Shown: in pieces, positions 22,794 through 29,894 of the stretch
Layout: every line of letters starts with the position of its first letter
Position numbering within the stretch: position 1 is the first letter of the stretch
From: Bacteroidales bacterium
Lineage (GTDB): Bacteria > Bacteroidota > Bacteroidia > Bacteroidales > VadinHA17
Assembly (NCBI GenBank): GCA_046260645.1
Contig: JBHEOU010000001.1
Span: 1-31,046, forward strand
Reading direction: 5' to 3'
DNA length: 31,046 bases
Notes under the pieces: generated by a model
What the model was told of the DNA's origin: nothing
Databases searched by the model: none
The model's input: the letters and a program-made list of their open reading frames with translations, nothing else
Position numbers and translations under genes: made by a program

Positions 22794-23573
22794 ATGTCAA
22801 GGACAATAGCACTGGCCAATCAGAAGGGAGGAGTAGGGAAGACGACTACGGTAATTAATCTGGCCGCAAGCCTGGCCGCGCTTGAAAAGAGGGTATTGAT
22901 AGTTGATGCCGACCCGCAGTCGAACGCCACATCGGGGGTGGGCATTGACAGCAAGCAGGTGAAGGTCACCATTTATGACTGTCTCATTGACGGGGTCAAT
23001 CCGCGTGAGGCGGTTATGGCCTGCGGCATTGACAATCTCTCGGTCATCCCTTCCAATATTGATCTTGTGGGTGCTGAGATAGAGATGCTGGAGAGGCCTG
23101 AGAGGGAGAAGACACTTAAAAAGGTTCTGTCGGTCATCACTGCCGATTACGACTATATTCTTATTGACTGTTCGCCGTCGCTTGGCCTGCTCACTGTCAA
23201 TGCGCTCACCGCAGCCGACTCGGTGATAATTCCCGTTCAGTGTGAGTACTTCGCCCTTGAAGGGCTTGGCAAGCTGCTCAACACCATCAAGATCATTCAG
23301 ACCAACCTTAACCCTGACCTGGCGATAGAGGGCTTTCTCCTGACAATGTATGACTCGCGCCTCCGGCTGGCAAACCAGGTGGTTGATGAGGTCACGCGTC
23401 ACTTTCAGCAGATGGTCTTCAATACTATCATACAGCGCAATGTCAAGCTGTCAGAGGCTCCCAGTTACGGGCAGCCAGCCATACTCTACGATGCCGAATC
23501 AAGGGGTACGGTGAACTATCTCAACCTGGCCCGTGAGCTGCTCCAGAGGGTGGAGGCCAGGCAGAAGAATTAA
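22794..23573 (+). CDS. parA: ParA/Soj chromosome partitioning ATPase
   Basis: NQKGGVGKTTT deviant Walker A, VDADPQSNAT, IDCSPSLG, IPVQCEYFALEGL, IIQRNVKLSEAPSYG. Confidence 0.97.
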   Translation: MSRTIALANQKGGVGKTTTVINLAASLAALEKRVLIVDADPQSNATSGVGIDSKQVKVTIYDCLIDGVNPREAVMACGIDNLSVIPSNIDLVGAEIEMLERPEREKTLKKVLSVITADYDYILIDCSPSLGLLTVNALTAADSVIIPVQCEYFALEGLGKLLNTIKIIQTNLNPDLAIEGFLLTMYDSRLRLANQVVDEVTRHFQQMVFNTIIQRNVKLSEAPSYGQPAILYDAESRGTVNYLNLARELLQRVEARQKN

Positions 23574-23592
23574 TAATCCGCTTATCCGCGTT

Positions 23593-24480
23593 ATGAACAC
23601 AGCCAAAAAGAGCCCGTTGGGCAGAGGCCTCGGCGCCCTGATTGAAGGTGTTGAGAAAGAGGTGCTTGAGAAAAAGGTGGAGGCCAACCTCCAGATCGAT
23701 ATCAACTCCATTGACGGCAATCCCTTTCAGCCACGAACACGCTTTGACAGCCAGTCGCTTGAGGAGCTTGCAGCTTCCATAAGGCAGGTAGGGATAGTGG
23801 TACCTCTCACCGTCAGGGAGACAGGTGAAGGCCGTTACCAGCTCATCGCCGGTGAGCGCAGGCTGCGTGCCGCACGCATGGCCGGCCTGACACATGTCCC
23901 GGCATATATCCGCACCGCTGATGACACCGCGATGCTCGAGATGGCCCTCGTGGAGAACATTCAGAGGGAGGATCTTGATGCCATTGAAGTGGCAATCACC
24001 TACCAGCGCCTCATTGAAGAGTGCAGCCTGACACAGGAGCAGCTCAGTGACAGGGTGGGCAAGCAACGCTCCACGGTGGCTAACTACATGCGCCTCCTCA
24101 GGCTGCCCGCGGAGATACAACTGGGCATACGCAACAGGAACCTCTCAATGGGTCACGCCCGTACGCTGGTAAATATTGATGACCCCGCCAAACAGATCAA
24201 CGTCTTCTATCACATAATAGAGGAAGACCTCTCCGTCAGGGCTACAGAGGAGCTGGTGAGGCACCTCCAGACTGCATCGTCCAGGGACACGGTGAAGGAG
24301 GAAAAGAAAAAGAGACTTAACACCGAATTCGAGGAGCTGGCACGGCAGCTCAGCAGCCTCTTCCAGTCAGAGGTACAGTTTCGCATCAATGAAAAGGGCA
24401 GGGGCAAAATAGTCATCCCGTTCGGTGACAATGATGAGATGGAGCGCATAATCGGTTTGCTCGATAAACTTAACAGGTAA
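23593..24480 (+). CDS. parB: ParB/Spo0J partition protein
   Basis: LGRGLGALI, NPFQPR..F, IAGERRLRAA, ALVENIQREDL, HTH TQEQLSDRVGKQRSTVANYMRLL. Start moved to ATG 23593. Confidence 0.97.
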   Translation: MNTAKKSPLGRGLGALIEGVEKEVLEKKVEANLQIDINSIDGNPFQPRTRFDSQSLEELAASIRQVGIVVPLTVRETGEGRYQLIAGERRLRAARMAGLTHVPAYIRTADDTAMLEMALVENIQREDLDAIEVAITYQRLIEECSLTQEQLSDRVGKQRSTVANYMRLLRLPAEIQLGIRNRNLSMGHARTLVNIDDPAKQINVFYHIIEEDLSVRATEELVRHLQTASSRDTVKEEKKKRLNTEFEELARQLSSLFQSEVQFRINEKGRGKIVIPFGDNDEMERIIGLLDKLNR

Positions 24481-24485
24481 ATGGT

Positions 24486-24493
24486 TATATTTG
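24486..24493 (+). promoter_or_regulatory. -7 box just after parB, upstream of the DUF5683 gene
   Basis: TATATTTG(C), 25 nt before GTG 24519. Confidence 0.5.
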
Positions 24494-24518
24494 CCGGCAA
24501 ACACAAAAGGTTTGCCCT

Positions 24519-25148
24519 GTGGAGCTGTCCGGCAAAATAGCATTCATCCTTCTTTTTTCATCTGTCATGACCTGCGGCGCACAGGCCCAGGATACAGTCC
24601 GTGTCAGGAGAGAGAAGGTCAGGAAATATACCATTGAGCCTGTCAGATCTACCATGTTCGCGGCCGCCCTGCCAGGCCTGGGACAGATATACAACCGCAA
24701 ATACTGGAAGGTGCCATTTGTCTATGCCGGTTTCGGAGCACTGGGTTATGCCGTCACCTTTAACACGCAAAACTACAATACCTTCATCAATGCCTACCAG
24801 GACTTCACCGACATTATACCTGAGACAGACAGCTACCTCGATCTGCTGGTAAACCAGGACCCCGCAACCTATGATCCCGTACTTCACCCTGAGACCTTCA
24901 CCGCTTCAAACGAGGCGTGGGTGAAAACTTCGCTGCGTAACGGCGTCGATTATTATCGCAAGTATCGTGACCTCTCTTACATAGGCATAGCGGCATGGTA
25001 CCTGTTCACCATCATTGATGCCCACGTTGATGCAAGCCTGTCTGATTATGATATCAGCGATGACCTGAAAGTTTATTTGCTCCCTGTAAGTGCATCCTAT
25101 GCAAGATTATCACCCGGAATTACGTTCTCTATTACCAGGACATTCTAA
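24519..25148 (+). CDS. DUF5683-like exported/membrane protein
   Basis: Signal peptide (AQA|QD); AALPGLGQIYNRKYWKVP.VY, YRKYRDLS, YLFTIIDAHVDA.L.DYDISDDL; usual parB-mltD neighbour. Confidence 0.8.
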   Translation: MELSGKIAFILLFSSVMTCGAQAQDTVRVRREKVRKYTIEPVRSTMFAAALPGLGQIYNRKYWKVPFVYAGFGALGYAVTFNTQNYNTFINAYQDFTDIIPETDSYLDLLVNQDPATYDPVLHPETFTASNEAWVKTSLRNGVDYYRKYRDLSYIGIAAWYLFTIIDAHVDASLSDYDISDDLKVYLLPVSASYARLSPGITFSITRTF

Positions 25149-25159
25149 AAAAAACCAAA

Positions 25160-26716
25160 ATGACGCTGAAAACAATAACTATTTCCCTCTTCCTTGTAAT
25201 TTTTTCTCTTACCGCCACTGCTGTAAATGACACAATTATTATAAGAAATGATGATTCCACCGAACGAATCGAACGCGATCTCGACGGCCTGCTTAATGAC
25301 TGGTTCATCCAGATGTCTGTCGCCGGTACGGAGATCACCGCGGCTGACTCAGTCATTGCAGAGTTCAGCGACTCTGTTTACACGGACCGTCTCGGGAGGA
25401 TCAATTCCGTCATCCTCCTTCCATATAACAATATTATCCGGAGCCATATCCATGTATATACCAACCGGAAGGTTGACAGGTTCCAGGTAATGCTGGGGCT
25501 TCAGGACTACTATTTTCCCATGATAGAGGATATATTTGATTATTACGGGCTGCCGGTGGAGTTGAAATATATGGCGGTTATTGAATCTGCGCTCAACCCC
25601 AATGCAGTCAGCCGGGCAGGAGCCACGGGACTATGGCAGTTCATGTACAGCACGGGACGCATGTACGGGCTCACCATCAACTCGGTTGTGGATGAACGCC
25701 GTGACCCCGTGAAGGCCACTCACGCCGCAGCCAGGTACCTGAAAGATCTTCATGGCATTTACAACGACTGGATACTGGTCATTGCTGCTTATAACTGCGG
25801 GCCGGGCAATGTCAACAAGGCGATCCGGCGTTCTGGCAATCGCAAGGATTACTGGGAGATTTACTACCGCCTGCCGCGTGAGACACGCGGTTATATTCCT
25901 CAGTTCGTGGCTGCCACATATGCCATGAACTATTACCGCGAGCACAATATCACTCCGGTTCAGATCAACCTGCCGCTGGCGGTTGACACCGTGATGGTCT
26001 CCCAGGACATTCATCTTGAGCAGATTGCTGCAGTACTTGATCTGCCGCTCGAGGAGATCAGGGCCATGAACCCACAGTACCGGACAGGGCTCGTTCCCGG
26101 GCGGAGCAAAACCAGCGCCATCACTCTGCCGGTAGACAAACTGGGTGATTTCATCGCAATGGCTGACACCATCACCGGTTACAAGAAAGAGCAGTATCTT
26201 ACCAGGGTAAACCAGACTTCGGCTCCAACACAGTCGGCCTACGCACCACCCACGGCAACGGGGAAGACCGCTCTGACCTATGTGGTGAAAAACGGTGATA
26301 ACCTGGGCTTCATCTCCGAGTGGTATGACGTGGGGCTTTCGGACCTGAGATACTGGAATAATATCTACCGCAACACGATAAAGATAGGCCAGAAGCTTAC
26401 CATTTACGTTGACCCGGCCAGGGCTGAAAGGTACAGCAAGGTCAATTCAATGAGTTTTATCGAAAAGCAGAGGCTTGAAGGGAAGGTCACCGCGGCTGGA
26501 TCCGGAGCCTCGCCGTCAACAAGCGCCACTGCATCCGTCACCGCGTTATCTGAAGGTGATTATGAGCTTTATACCGTCAGATACGGAGACACGGTATGGG
26601 ACATTGCACAAAAGTTTAGCGGTGTATCCGCCACTGACATACTAAGAATAAACAATATCTCCGATGCTTCCAGGATACAGGTGGGACAAAAGCTGAGGAT
26701 CAGAAAAAAAGGCTGA
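25160..26716 (+). CDS. mltD: Membrane-bound lytic murein transglycosylase D-like (SLT domain plus two LysM)
   Basis: Catalytic AVIESALNP.A.SRAGATGLWQFM, AAYNCGPGNV, LPRETRGY; LysM YVVKNGDNL and YTVRYGDTVWDIA. Confidence 0.92.
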   Translation: MTLKTITISLFLVIFSLTATAVNDTIIIRNDDSTERIERDLDGLLNDWFIQMSVAGTEITAADSVIAEFSDSVYTDRLGRINSVILLPYNNIIRSHIHVYTNRKVDRFQVMLGLQDYYFPMIEDIFDYYGLPVELKYMAVIESALNPNAVSRAGATGLWQFMYSTGRMYGLTINSVVDERRDPVKATHAAARYLKDLHGIYNDWILVIAAYNCGPGNVNKAIRRSGNRKDYWEIYYRLPRETRGYIPQFVAATYAMNYYREHNITPVQINLPLAVDTVMVSQDIHLEQIAAVLDLPLEEIRAMNPQYRTGLVPGRSKTSAITLPVDKLGDFIAMADTITGYKKEQYLTRVNQTSAPTQSAYAPPTATGKTALTYVVKNGDNLGFISEWYDVGLSDLRYWNNIYRNTIKIGQKLTIYVDPARAERYSKVNSMSFIEKQRLEGKVTAAGSGASPSTSATASVTALSEGDYELYTVRYGDTVWDIAQKFSGVSATDILRINNISDASRIQVGQKLRIRKKG

Positions 26717-26729
26717 TTAAAAATCGAAT

Positions 26730-29700
26730 ATGCGCCCCGGCAGAATTCTGCTTTTTCTGCTTTCCGTCACTCTGACGCTCTTCATCCTGAGCCTTGTGAT
26801 CGCTCGACTGCGAACGGGGAGGGACCCACTGTTACACGAGTCTTATACTGATACGCTTGCACATCATGAGGAAACTCATGACACGCTGTTCAGCGACACT
26901 GTCTTAAAAGATCAGCCGGCAGCTGATGTCGGCGATCAGGGCATCGCGCGCGATTCGGCTTCGGCTTCATTTCCGGCTTCGTCTTCGTCTTCGGCCCCGG
27001 TTCCGGCTTCAGCTGAGGCAGGAATGGCTCCGGCCACTGTCAGGGCCCCGTACTATCCGGGTGACGCGCTGAGAGACTCCCTGGCTGAGGGCCGGCAGGT
27101 AAGGATACTCTACTTTGGAGACTCACAGATTGAGGGTGACAGGGTAACTTCCATGCTCAGGCAGAAGCTTAGAGCTGAAGGAGGAGGAACAGGTCCCGGG
27201 CTCTTCTCTCCGGTCATGCCGGTGATGTATACAAGGTCATATGTTGTCAGATCGTCATCAAACTGGAAGAGATATACACTTCTCGATTACAGGAAAGGCT
27301 CCCTTCCCCACAACAGGCTCGGACCAATGCTGGCCATCTGCCGCTTTACTCCCCCGGAGACGGGCCTTACTGCACGCTCATTTGCCTCGGTTAAGATAAA
27401 CCCGGTTCCCGGTGCCGATACATCTGTGTCGAAATACGAAAAGCTGAGGATATTCTACGGTAACAATTACGACACCATACTTGTCGGCATCAGGTCAGGA
27501 AATACCATGGTCGATTTCGCCATGCTGCAGATGGGCGAAGGGCCGATTGAATATGCCGTGCCTCTTCCTTCCATATCGGATATCACCATCGAATTCACCG
27601 GCCGTAACTCTCCTGATATATATGCCCTGAGTCTTGAGAGCGATACGGGAATGATCATTGACAATATCCCTGTTCGCGGAAGCGCCGGCCTTGAGTTTGT
27701 GATGACAGATATCCGGGGCTTTGAAGGATGCCTCTCCGGGCTTGACCCCGATGTCATCTTTCTGCAGTTCGGCCTTAATGTAGTCAGGAACGTCAGGAGC
27801 GAGTATCATTATTATGAAGAGGGCCTGGTCAAGCAGATCGAATACCTGAAAAAGGCAAGCGGCGGCGTACCGGTAGTACTGGTGAGCGTAACGGATATGG
27901 CACTGCGGGTAAGTGACACCATAAGACACTTCCCCAACATCAGGGCAATACGCGATGCGCAGAAGAAAGCCGCCGAGAGGAGCGGTGCCATATTCTGGGA
28001 TGCGTGGCAGGAAATGGGCGGCTCAGGCTCTATCATGAGATGGTTCAGCCACAAGCCACCGCTGGCGTCGAAAGACCTGACCCATCTGTCAAATGCCGGG
28101 GCAGACACCCTCGCCGCAAGAATAATGGCAGACCTGCTGGTCGCCCGCACAGCGCCGGCAGAGCCTGCTTTTGGGTCGACGGCTGCAACCGACTCCCTCT
28201 CTGCAGAAGCTACAGGGTCCGGAGCATATGATGCCGGGCCTGGCGCTCTGCCCGCGGGCGACACCGTCAGCGGTTATGATGAACTTCCCGGGGCTGACAC
28301 ATATGACGATGGCCAGATTCCCGGGGCTGACACTGAGGATGATGGCCAGATTGCCGGGGCTGACACTGAGGATGAGGGCGATGGCTGGGTCGCCTATATA
28401 CTGAAGTATAACCCGCGCCAGTCTTTCATATTCACCACAACGGGATTCTGGATCTTCTTTCTTGTAGTGATGGCAGGGTTTGCCCTGATGCATAAAAAAA
28501 GAGCCATGTGCCATACATGGCTGCTGCTGGTGAGCCTTTACTTCTATTACCGGGTCGGAGGTCTGTTCATAATACTGCTGATGCTAACCACGGCACTGAC
28601 TTACTTTACGGCCCTCATGACCGGCAGGGCTGAACGAAAGGCCGGAAAGCGCCTGTGGCTCATAACCAATATCGTTCTGCTGCTGGGCTTCCTCTCATAC
28701 TTCAAGTATGCAGGTTTTATCACGGAGACGATTAATTCACTCTTCAACACGGCGTTTGTAGCTCATGATATCTTCTCAGCCTGGTCAAACAGCATGTTGG
28801 GAACATCGTTTGACATCAACACTATTGTGCTGCCGGTAGGGATATCGTTCTTCACCTTCCAGGCGCTGAGCTACAGCATTGATGTCTACAGGGGTCGTAT
28901 GATGCCTGAAAGGAACTTCATCGATTTTGCCTTTTACCTGACCTTTTTTCCTCAGCTGGTGGCCGGTCCGATAGTAAGAGCCTCGGAGTTTATTCCCCAG
29001 ATGAGGGGAGAGTACACCATCAGCCGAAACGAATTCGGGTATGGGGTATTCCTGATACTGCAGGGCCTTATCAAGAAGATGCTGATCTCCGACTTGATCT
29101 CTGTCGGGTTCATCGACAGGGTATTCGATACTCCGGCACTGTATTCGGGTTTTGAGAACCTCATGGCTGTCTACGGTTACGGCCTTCAGATCTACTGTGA
29201 CTTCTCGGGATATACTGACATTGCCATAGGCGTGGCAATGCTTATGGGTTTCAGGCTGCCTCTCAATTTCAACTCGCCTTACAAGGCTGCCAATATTGGC
29301 GATTTCTGGAGGCGCTGGCACATCTCTCTCTCCAGATGGCTAAAGGATTACCTCTATATCCCTCTCGGAGGCAACAGGAAAGGCCCTGTAAGAACAGGTA
29401 TCAACCTGATGATAACGATGCTTCTCGGAGGACTGTGGCATGGTGCTGCCATGCGCTTTTTGATATGGGGCGGCCTGCACGGGGTGGCACTTGTGGCAGA
29501 TAAGGCCTGGCAGTGGATCTTCAGGGGTGTGCGAAGTAAATCACGTATGGCACGCATAGCCGGCATCATACTGACCTTCAACTTCGTGAGCTTCGCGTGG
29601 ATATTCTTCCGTGCGGGAACAACGGAAGAGGCAGGGGTAATGCTGACGCAGATATTCACCTCATTCACACCGGGAGACTATGGCAGGGTCATAATGGCCT

Positions 29701-29894
29701 ACCTGCCCGTGATGGTCCTTATTGCCTCAGGATATATTTTGCATTTTCTTCCCGTAACCACCAAGGAGGCTTACCGGGGCCTTTTCATCAGGCTGCCTCT
29801 GGTGATGAAGTTCCTGATAGCAATAGTGGTAGTCCTGCTGCTCCACAAGGTTGGAACCGATGTGGTTCAGCCTTTCATCTATTTCAGGTTCTGA
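26730..29894 (+). CDS. Fused SGNH/GDSL acetyltransferase-like domain plus AlgI/PatA-type MBOAT O-acyltransferase with C-terminal FIYFRF motif
   Basis: N-terminal TM; GDS (S132), GSAG, QFGLN, DLTH (D449/H452); acidic linker; MBOAT motifs LPVGISFFTFQALSY, FFPQLVAGPIVRA, YCDFSGYTDIAIG, NFNSPY, FWRRWHISLSRWLKDYLYIPLGG, GLWHGA (H904); ends PFIYFRF. Confidence 0.9.
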   Translation: MRPGRILLFLLSVTLTLFILSLVIARLRTGRDPLLHESYTDTLAHHEETHDTLFSDTVLKDQPAADVGDQGIARDSASASFPASSSSSAPVPASAEAGMAPATVRAPYYPGDALRDSLAEGRQVRILYFGDSQIEGDRVTSMLRQKLRAEGGGTGPGLFSPVMPVMYTRSYVVRSSSNWKRYTLLDYRKGSLPHNRLGPMLAICRFTPPETGLTARSFASVKINPVPGADTSVSKYEKLRIFYGNNYDTILVGIRSGNTMVDFAMLQMGEGPIEYAVPLPSISDITIEFTGRNSPDIYALSLESDTGMIIDNIPVRGSAGLEFVMTDIRGFEGCLSGLDPDVIFLQFGLNVVRNVRSEYHYYEEGLVKQIEYLKKASGGVPVVLVSVTDMALRVSDTIRHFPNIRAIRDAQKKAAERSGAIFWDAWQEMGGSGSIMRWFSHKPPLASKDLTHLSNAGADTLAARIMADLLVARTAPAEPAFGSTAATDSLSAEATGSGAYDAGPGALPAGDTVSGYDELPGADTYDDGQIPGADTEDDGQIAGADTEDEGDGWVAYILKYNPRQSFIFTTTGFWIFFLVVMAGFALMHKKRAMCHTWLLLVSLYFYYRVGGLFIILLMLTTALTYFTALMTGRAERKAGKRLWLITNIVLLLGFLSYFKYAGFITETINSLFNTAFVAHDIFSAWSNSMLGTSFDINTIVLPVGISFFTFQALSYSIDVYRGRMMPERNFIDFAFYLTFFPQLVAGPIVRASEFIPQMRGEYTISRNEFGYGVFLILQGLIKKMLISDLISVGFIDRVFDTPALYSGFENLMAVYGYGLQIYCDFSGYTDIAIGVAMLMGFRLPLNFNSPYKAANIGDFWRRWHISLSRWLKDYLYIPLGGNRKGPVRTGINLMITMLLGGLWHGAAMRFLIWGGLHGVALVADKAWQWIFRGVRSKSRMARIAGIILTFNFVSFAWIFFRAGTTEEAGVMLTQIFTSFTPGDYGRVIMAYLPVMVLIASGYILHFLPVTTKEAYRGLFIRLPLVMKFLIAIVVVLLLHKVGTDVVQPFIYFRF
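26953..27012 (+). repeat. In-frame hexamer-type low-complexity tract (TCGGCT/TCGTCT; Ser/Ala/Pro linker)
   Basis: gattcggcttcggcttcatttccggcttcgtcttcgtcttcggccccggttccggcttca encodes DSASASFPASSSSSAPVPAS. Confidence 0.75.
28287..28376 (+). repeat. 33-bp in-frame tandem repeat, about 2.7 copies (PGADT[YE]DDGQI)
   Basis: CCCGGGGCTGACACATATGACGATGGCCAGATT / CCCGGGGCTGACACTGAGGATGATGGCCAGATT / GCCGGGGCTGACACTGAGGATGAG. Confidence 0.9.

Follow-up and report, generated by a model that had tools for sequence, protein, structure and literature searches.

A natural SGNH::MBOAT fusion in Bacteroidota as a candidate single-chain peptidoglycan O-acetyltransferase

Domain architecture and gene neighbourhood

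The window analysed here, a 31,046-nucleotide stretch of contig JBHEOU010000001.1 from a Bacteroidales bacterium of the VadinHA17 lineage (GenBank assembly GCA_046260645.1), encodes on its forward strand a natural fusion of an SGNH domain to an MBOAT acyltransferase domain. A single unbroken open reading frame (26730..29894) of 1054 residues plus a stop codon covers both halves, a call supported by full-length homologues. From the N terminus, the protein comprises a transmembrane (TM) anchor, a disordered stalk, the SGNH domain, an acidic, repeat-rich linker, the MBOAT and a terminal FIYFRF hexapeptide. The search for both Pfam families proposed in the initial annotation, which had been made from the DNA letters alone, returned scores above cut-off for MBOAT (PF03062, 124.6 bits; cut-off 27) and Lipase_GDSL_2 (PF13472, 36.3 bits; cut-off 32.9). 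Its anatomical claims also held: the frame is uninterrupted, and the catalytic triad, the MBOAT histidine and the terminal tyrosine described below all sit exactly where they had been placed.

An AlphaFold model (mean pLDDT 70.5), for which 48 homologues served as input, delimits the N-terminal half. Residues 3-30 form the signal-anchor helix (26736..26819), a segment that had been recognised initially and whose Kyte-Doolittle hydropathy reaches a maximum of 2.89 (hydrophobic over residues 1-29). Anchor residues M1, R2, P3 and R5 are conserved, and stand-alone proteins of the same SGNH type, here termed SGNH-A, share the same anchor. The Ser/Ala/Pro-rich stalk that follows (residues 31-105, 26820..27044) is disordered (pLDDT <50). 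The SGNH domain itself (residues 106-475, 27045..28154) was defined by a profile match to the Ape1 enzyme NmApe1, by Foldseek and by the alpha/beta domain modelled at residues 110-470 with pLDDT ~90. Its catalytic set is complete, with S132 (codon 27123-27125) in GDS (130-132), D449 (28074-28076) and H452 (28083-28085) in DLTH (449-452), and the oxyanion residues G317, which aligns to the Gly of Ape1 GING, and N350, which lies in FGLN (347-350). A beta-sandwich insert between SGNH blocks I and II (residues 157-314, 27198..27671; strands only by DSSP) aligns to the insert of Ape1 and resembles its CBM35-type module; it is covered by the whole-domain structural match reported below.

The long low-complexity linker of the initial annotation corresponds to acidic residues 476-552 (28155..28385), which are predicted to be disordered and hold a 33-bp x 2.9 tandem repeat at 28285-28379. 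No methionine occurs between M466 and M581, consistent with the claim that no ATG separates the end of the SGNH domain from the MBOAT. Since the stalk also carries tandem repeats (26954-27014; Tandem Repeats Finder periods of 6, 18 and 30 bp, encoding a run rich in Ser, Ala and Pro), each of the two leashes that hold the SGNH domain evolves by repeat slippage.

The MBOAT (residues 553-1047, 28386..29870) was assigned from PF03062, Foldseek and alignment to DltB (PDB 6bug), and is modelled as a helical membrane domain over residues 553-1042. The match to DltB (E 7.7e-27; target TM-score 0.67) places H904 (codon 29439-29441, within GLWHG at 901-905) on DltB H336 and H864 (29319-29321) on H289, and both histidines are invariant in 79 homologues. 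Past the DltB-aligned part, three extra helices (984-1005, 1009-1021 and 1024-1042) lead into FIYFRF (residues 1049-1054, 29874..29891; Y1051 codon 29880-29882), the end of the PFIYFRF motif at 1048-1054. Such extra helices and a C-terminal hexapeptide are also described for PatA (PMC12148441), making the arrangement PatA-type. All 31 distant fusions share F1049, I1050, Y1051 and F1054, and 89 of 97 related MBOATs carry a C-terminal FIYxxF-type motif. The fusion protein has no match to the acyltransferase-3 (AT3) domain (PF01757) that characterises OatA-type enzymes, and no second MBOAT was found in the source genome, which is 80% complete.

Immediately upstream on the same strand lies a lytic transglycosylase gene with SLT and two LysM domains by Pfam (25160..26716), whose stop codon is separated from the fusion start by 13 nt. 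It is preceded by the parA, parB and DUF5683 genes (22794..25148, forward strand; Pfam) that head the conserved block. The more distant region (1186-22653) is of housekeeping character, with genes for Lon, FtsH, a CdsA-like protein, phosphatidylserine decarboxylase, cydAB, an AI-2E transporter, glutaminyl cyclase and a flavodiiron-like protein. No tRNA or Rfam matches were found across the window.

Authenticity, ancestry and recurrence of the fusion

The SGNH-A::MBOAT fusion is real and not an assembly artefact. One open frame of 934-1096 residues spans both halves in 29 of the 40 other genomes of the genus, and four (G001, G010, G012 and G020) have broken frames; in the remainder the locus is cut by contig ends or unresolved. 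NCBI, JGI, ENA and Logan together supplied more than 120 protein clusters (90% identity) of ~1000 residues that carry both Pfam domains, and the locus L024 likewise keeps a single fused frame. Homologous linkers range from 37 to 128 residues and are hypervariable and acidic, never hydrophobic, with the frame always open. To cross the linker independently, as the initial annotation had proposed with reads, Logan contigs of related strains (share 0.37 or less) from four other metagenomes were used; only two runs bridged it, and the deletions seen there (33 nt, and 108 nt net) preserve the reading frame. The catalytic residues of both domains are invariant across 48 close and 31 distant full-length homologues, which together with the single frame kept across the genus places the architecture far beyond chance. 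Overall, frame conservation, a variable but always-open linker and exclusively in-frame indels indicate that the fusion is under selection.

The apparent fusion might instead be a product of misassembly or frameshift, or a precursor cleaved within its linker into two chains, and the interrupted frames in four genomes and the repetitive linker sequence lend this idea some support. In G020, the break falls in the linker: at L021:2271-5256 (G020:C8) SGNH and MBOAT are read in different frames that share 320 nt, indicating a frameshift inside the linker that is either a true re-split or an error of the metagenome-assembled genome in the repeat. Cleavage of a precursor is compatible with the sequence. 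Nevertheless, conservation of one frame in most of the genus, in L024 and in clusters from independent projects, and the exclusively in-frame differences in other metagenomes, make a pseudo-fusion very improbable.

Sequence profiles and modelled structure place the SGNH half in the Ape1 (O-acetyl-peptidoglycan esterase) family, not with PatB; its activity may differ from that of the family. A profile of 35 SGNH-A domains matched NmApe1 (PDB 4k3u) with an E of 8.8e-51, spanning Ape1 residues 37-368 of 379, and Campylobacter jejuni Ape1 with an E of 5.6e-33, versus 0.21 for PatB (7tjb). Similarly, Foldseek ranked Ape1 structures of Neisseria meningitidis and C. jejuni first (4k3u, 8gkd and 8gld; target TM-score 0.73-0.76), and PatB was missing from the top 50 folds. 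DUF459 (PF04311) had no match in the fusion protein, the SGNH domains of relatives reached 19-21 bits (cut-off 27.2), and no PatB/DUF459 protein above cut-off was found in the 41 genomes of the genus. The membrane-anchored SGNH domain on a long disordered stalk is a PatB-like trait, which we regard as a working resemblance and not as family membership.

Two Ape1-like paralogues occur among relatives, and the window domain is clearly of the first type (hidden Markov model scores of 354 bits for SGNH-A versus 71 for SGNH-B). In SGNH-A, a strong TM anchor lies at the N terminus and block I reads GDSQ. SGNH-B, also an Ape1 homologue (E 2.2e-46), has a cleavable Sec-type signal peptide, block I GGSH and block II GxNGA as in Ape1. 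The canonical block II Gly is kept in SGNH-A.

The parent gene cluster can be recognised in other families of the order, where the block reads parA, parB, DUF5683, SLT/LysM, SGNH-A, SGNH-B, sometimes an unrelated insert, and MBOAT. In unfused clusters the stand-alone proteins measure ~480-510 residues for SGNH-A, ~430 for SGNH-B and ~500-560 for MBOAT. The SLT/LysM neighbour recurs in G020, G044, L024, L026-L030, L033, L034, L038, L076, G031 and G034, and the parA-parB-DUF5683 order in L011, L012, L024, L026 and L033. Unrelated genes split SGNH-B from MBOAT at L011:7388-7756 and L012:7353-9851 (a 23S rRNA intervening-sequence protein in G034; a TonB-dependent receptor-like protein in G031). 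This synteny indicates that the fusion derives from the Bacteroidota cluster of SLT/LysM, SGNH-A, SGNH-B and MBOAT by loss of SGNH-B and joining of SGNH-A to MBOAT; it was thus not built de novo, a correction to the independent evolution proposed initially. Judging by gene order and family, not by accession, we take the counterpart of this cluster in Bacteroides and Porphyromonas to be the ape1b-ape1c-patA 'OAP' cluster (Weadge, Pfeffer & Clarke 2005, PMC1199599). The degree of peptidoglycan O-acetylation in these organisms is 27-69% (PMC1199599).

None of the 41 genus genomes yielded an SGNH-B gene; the only cross-match there comes from the fusion's own domain. Operons of just SGNH-A and MBOAT also occur: in L028, a sister lineage, the two genes share ~10 nt, with the MBOAT ATG lying inside the 3' end of SGNH-A. 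A path from three genes to two and then to the fusion is therefore likely, with the linker lengthened later by repeat expansion. When each family of the order was represented by one high-quality genome (99 in total), both paralogues were present in 50, SGNH-A alone in ~7-9 and SGNH-B alone in 1. SGNH-A occupies a separate frame (~440-570 residues) in these representatives, except in G064 (839 residues), and among them only the window's own genus showed the long fused frame. SGNH matches also lie in frames of 658-839 residues (G077:C145:5927-7141, G096:C39:30984-32147, G085:C41:55773-56957 and G064:C89:19963-21081; SGNH-B, with one SGNH-A), lengths above that of the usual gene yet below that of an MBOAT fusion; these frames may contain other added domains.

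The best 150 representatives at 50% identity include 31 fusions (at least 900 residues, both Pfam domains), in which GDS, N, DxxH, both His and FIYxxF are invariant. In a quick LG+G4 tree of 97 MBOAT rows, the fused state requires 6 changes, at least 5 of them forced by well-supported branches (Bacteroidota, Spirochaetota). Five representatives from metagenomic lineages (P0124, P0129, P0130, P0131 and P0141; block I GDSH) fuse SGNH-B in place of SGNH-A, and at least two fusion origins are therefore certain. Directly upstream of SGNH-B::MBOAT at L104:6001-8811 (P0131) and L105:5077-7863 (P0124) lies a separate ~470-residue gene, which by position, size and a weak GDSL match in one locus is probably SGNH-A; a class A penicillin-binding protein gene lies ~2 kb downstream of the fusion in L104. 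Outside Bacteroidota, a clade of 22 fusion representatives contains the Spirochaetota/Leptospiraceae entries P0165 and P0184. The SGNH domains of this clade fall between types A and B, and some members (P0174, 1232 residues; P0177, 1319; P0191, 1283) bear an extra N-terminal region of 350-450 residues.

The initial annotation had asked whether the architecture is already common and characterised. It is not rare, with databases naming the fusions 'MBOAT family O-acyltransferase', 'DltB' or 'AlgI'. As for characterisation, no example and no description of a natural SGNH::MBOAT fusion was found in the open-access full-text literature, where absence is not proof; the initial annotation likewise knew of none. 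In characterised systems the MBOAT and SGNH parts are stated to be separate (reviews; 2025 Journal of Biological Chemistry paper, PMC12148441), the latter paper being explicit about the separation into genes that the initial annotation had stated. The fusion reads as a conserved variant of the known peptidoglycan O-acetylation machinery, with a predicted function.

Candidate mechanism and competing functions

By analogy with these systems, the protein may be a single-chain peptidoglycan O-acetyltransferase whose gene arose when the outermost members of the Bacteroidota OAP cluster, the first and the last, were joined; we rank this proposal first and consider its chances evenly balanced. A broader version, which we hold tentatively and a little short of even confidence, is that Bacteroidota O-acetylate peptidoglycan without PatB. 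The anchored Ape1-fold paralogue SGNH-A ('Ape1b') would have turned into a transferase taking acetyl from the terminal Tyr of the MBOAT, and the fusion would be a self-contained enzyme whose ~80-residue leashes let the domain shuttle between membrane and wall. The initial annotation saw a whole O-acetylation pathway in one polypeptide. An MBOAT with a C-terminal Tyr hexapeptide is indeed present, but its SGNH partner is an Ape1 esterase-family domain and not PatB-, DltD- or AlgJ-like, which leaves the pathway itself putative. Anatomy, conservation, family and synteny were established directly; from them we infer topology, donor, acceptor and the direction of the SGNH reaction.

The N-terminal helix would act as a signal anchor with its N terminus inside, as the family has basic N termini ahead of the helix and an acidic flank beyond it, and would leave the stalk, SGNH domain and linker in the periplasm. 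No extra membrane pass would be needed, since a periplasmic linker meets the MBOAT N terminus, which is periplasmic in PatA (PMC12148441). With H904 and H864, the MBOAT would move acetyl from cytoplasmic acetyl-CoA to Y1051 of the free C-terminal FIYFRF. Precedent comes from C. jejuni PatA, in which the terminal-motif Tyr is auto-acetylated from acetyl-CoA and then donates to PatB (PMC12148441). The SGNH domain, held on two flexible leashes of ~75-80 residues, would accept the acetyl group onto S132, assisted by D449, H452 and an oxyanion hole of G317 and N350, and place it on the C6-OH of N-acetylmuramic acid (MurNAc). Such O-acetylation would block lytic transglycosylases, for example the product of the adjoining upstream gene. 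The lost soluble paralogue SGNH-B, with active-site motifs closest to Ape1, was probably the de-acetylase. A complex prediction for MBOAT (553-1054) and SGNH (106-475) gave a score of 0.00, which counts neither for nor against docking.

Several observations favour SGNH-A as the probable transferase. Of the two paralogues it is the membrane-anchored one, a trait shared with PatB, DltD and AlgJ; it is mostly the one kept when a single paralogue remains; it forms two-gene operons with the MBOAT; and an MBOAT that keeps its shuttle Tyr would have to pass the acetyl group to an SGNH domain, for which no other candidate was found in the genus. Ape1 homology, the conserved lytic-transglycosylase neighbour, the O-acetylated peptidoglycan of Bacteroides and Porphyromonas (PMC1199599) and the lack of polysaccharide genes nearby point to peptidoglycan as the target. 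Precedents for such a neighbour are sleB-pat in Zymomonas (bioRxiv 10.64898/2026.07.21.739787) and, as cited in that preprint, LtgA-Ape1 in Neisseria (PMC7083599).

Other evidence weighs against a transferase. The SGNH domain descends from the esterase family Ape1 and not from PatB, it retains the hydrolase-type canonical oxyanion Gly and Asn, and the ape gene of Zymomonas, of the ape1b class in Weadge 2005, is treated as a de-acetylase (bioRxiv 10.64898/2026.07.21.739787). These three points hold our confidence in transferase activity to about one half. The incomplete source genome counts on the same side, as does fusion of SGNH-B to MBOAT in other lineages, by which fusion alone is no proof of coupling. 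A 'Rosetta stone' argument, in which fusion itself would imply a transferase, was dropped on account of those SGNH-B fusions.

The SGNH domain might accordingly serve mainly, or also, as an O-acetyl-peptidoglycan esterase, that is, a de-acetylase tethered to the acetyl carrier for editing or turnover control, with transfer performed by another, unrecognised SGNH protein or by the same domain working both ways. Full-length homology to Ape1, with the inserted beta module and canonical Ser, Gly, Asn, Asp and His, is what an esterase would display, and the SGNH-B::MBOAT fusions mean that either paralogue can be joined. Yet an MBOAT with a shuttle Tyr would be pointless without a transferase, neither a PatB-type nor an SGNH-B gene was found in the 41 genomes, the sole remaining paralogue is usually SGNH-A, and the Ape1 block I and II motifs (SH, GxNGA) fit SGNH-B better, so that we consider the esterase explanation rather unlikely. 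The acceptor could also be another extracytoplasmic polymer, such as capsule, exopolysaccharide, lipopolysaccharide or a glycoprotein glycan. MBOAT/SGNH pairs act on alginate, cellulose, secondary cell wall polysaccharide and teichoic acids (PMC9487903, PMC12148441), and the A-B-MBOAT cluster occurs without the SLT neighbour in Flavobacteriia and other groups. In the window, however, no glycosyltransferase, polymerase or export genes adjoin the fusion; the locus belongs to a housekeeping block (parAB-DUF5683-SLT/LysM) conserved across families, and the closest solved relatives act on peptidoglycan. A different polymer is thus improbable as the target.

Relation to known systems and significance

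The candidate O-acetyltransferase shares much with the PatA/PatB/Ape1 systems of Neisseria and Campylobacter: the MBOAT catalytic His and C-terminal FxYxxF shuttle Tyr, a periplasmic SGNH partner that a long N-terminal stalk links to its membrane anchor, a functional and genomic tie to lytic transglycosylases, and the Ape1 fold with its inserted CBM35-type module. In contrast to their three proteins, a single chain is encoded here, no PatB (DUF459) homologue was found, and the SGNH domain joined to the MBOAT is of the Ape1 family. The ape1b-ape1c-patA cluster (PMC1199599) matches in families and order, with an anchored SGNH, a second SGNH and the MBOAT last, but consists of separate genes, whereas the fusion lacks the middle one and connects the first and last through a 77-residue linker. 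OatA of Gram-positive bacteria is also one polypeptide; it moves acetyl across the membrane and passes it through an acetyl-Tyr intermediate to a fused SGNH domain, which in OatA acetylates MurNAc. However, its AT3 membrane domain is unrelated to MBOAT and comes first, and its Tyr is on a loop and not at the C terminus. DltB/DltX/DltD offers the closest solved MBOAT structure (6bug), a shuttle in the form of a Tyr hexapeptide and, as acceptor, an anchored enzyme of SGNH fold, but as separate proteins with a microprotein shuttle, D-alanyl-DltC as donor and teichoic acid as target.

The walls of Bacteroidota, a dominant phylum of gut and sediment, are heavily O-acetylated. A natural SGNH::MBOAT fusion in this phylum contrasts with the reviews and the 2025 paper, in which MBOAT and SGNH are always separate, unlike the fused AT3-SGNH proteins. 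It may offer a one-gene system for reconstituting MBOAT-dependent wall acetylation and a ready-made cryo-EM construct for the Tyr-to-Ser hand-off, and it gives a genetic argument as to which Ape1-like Bacteroidota protein is the transferase. If the transferase reading is true, esterase fold and transferase role would be uncoupled, which would bear on the annotation of 'GDSL lipase' genes beside MBOATs.

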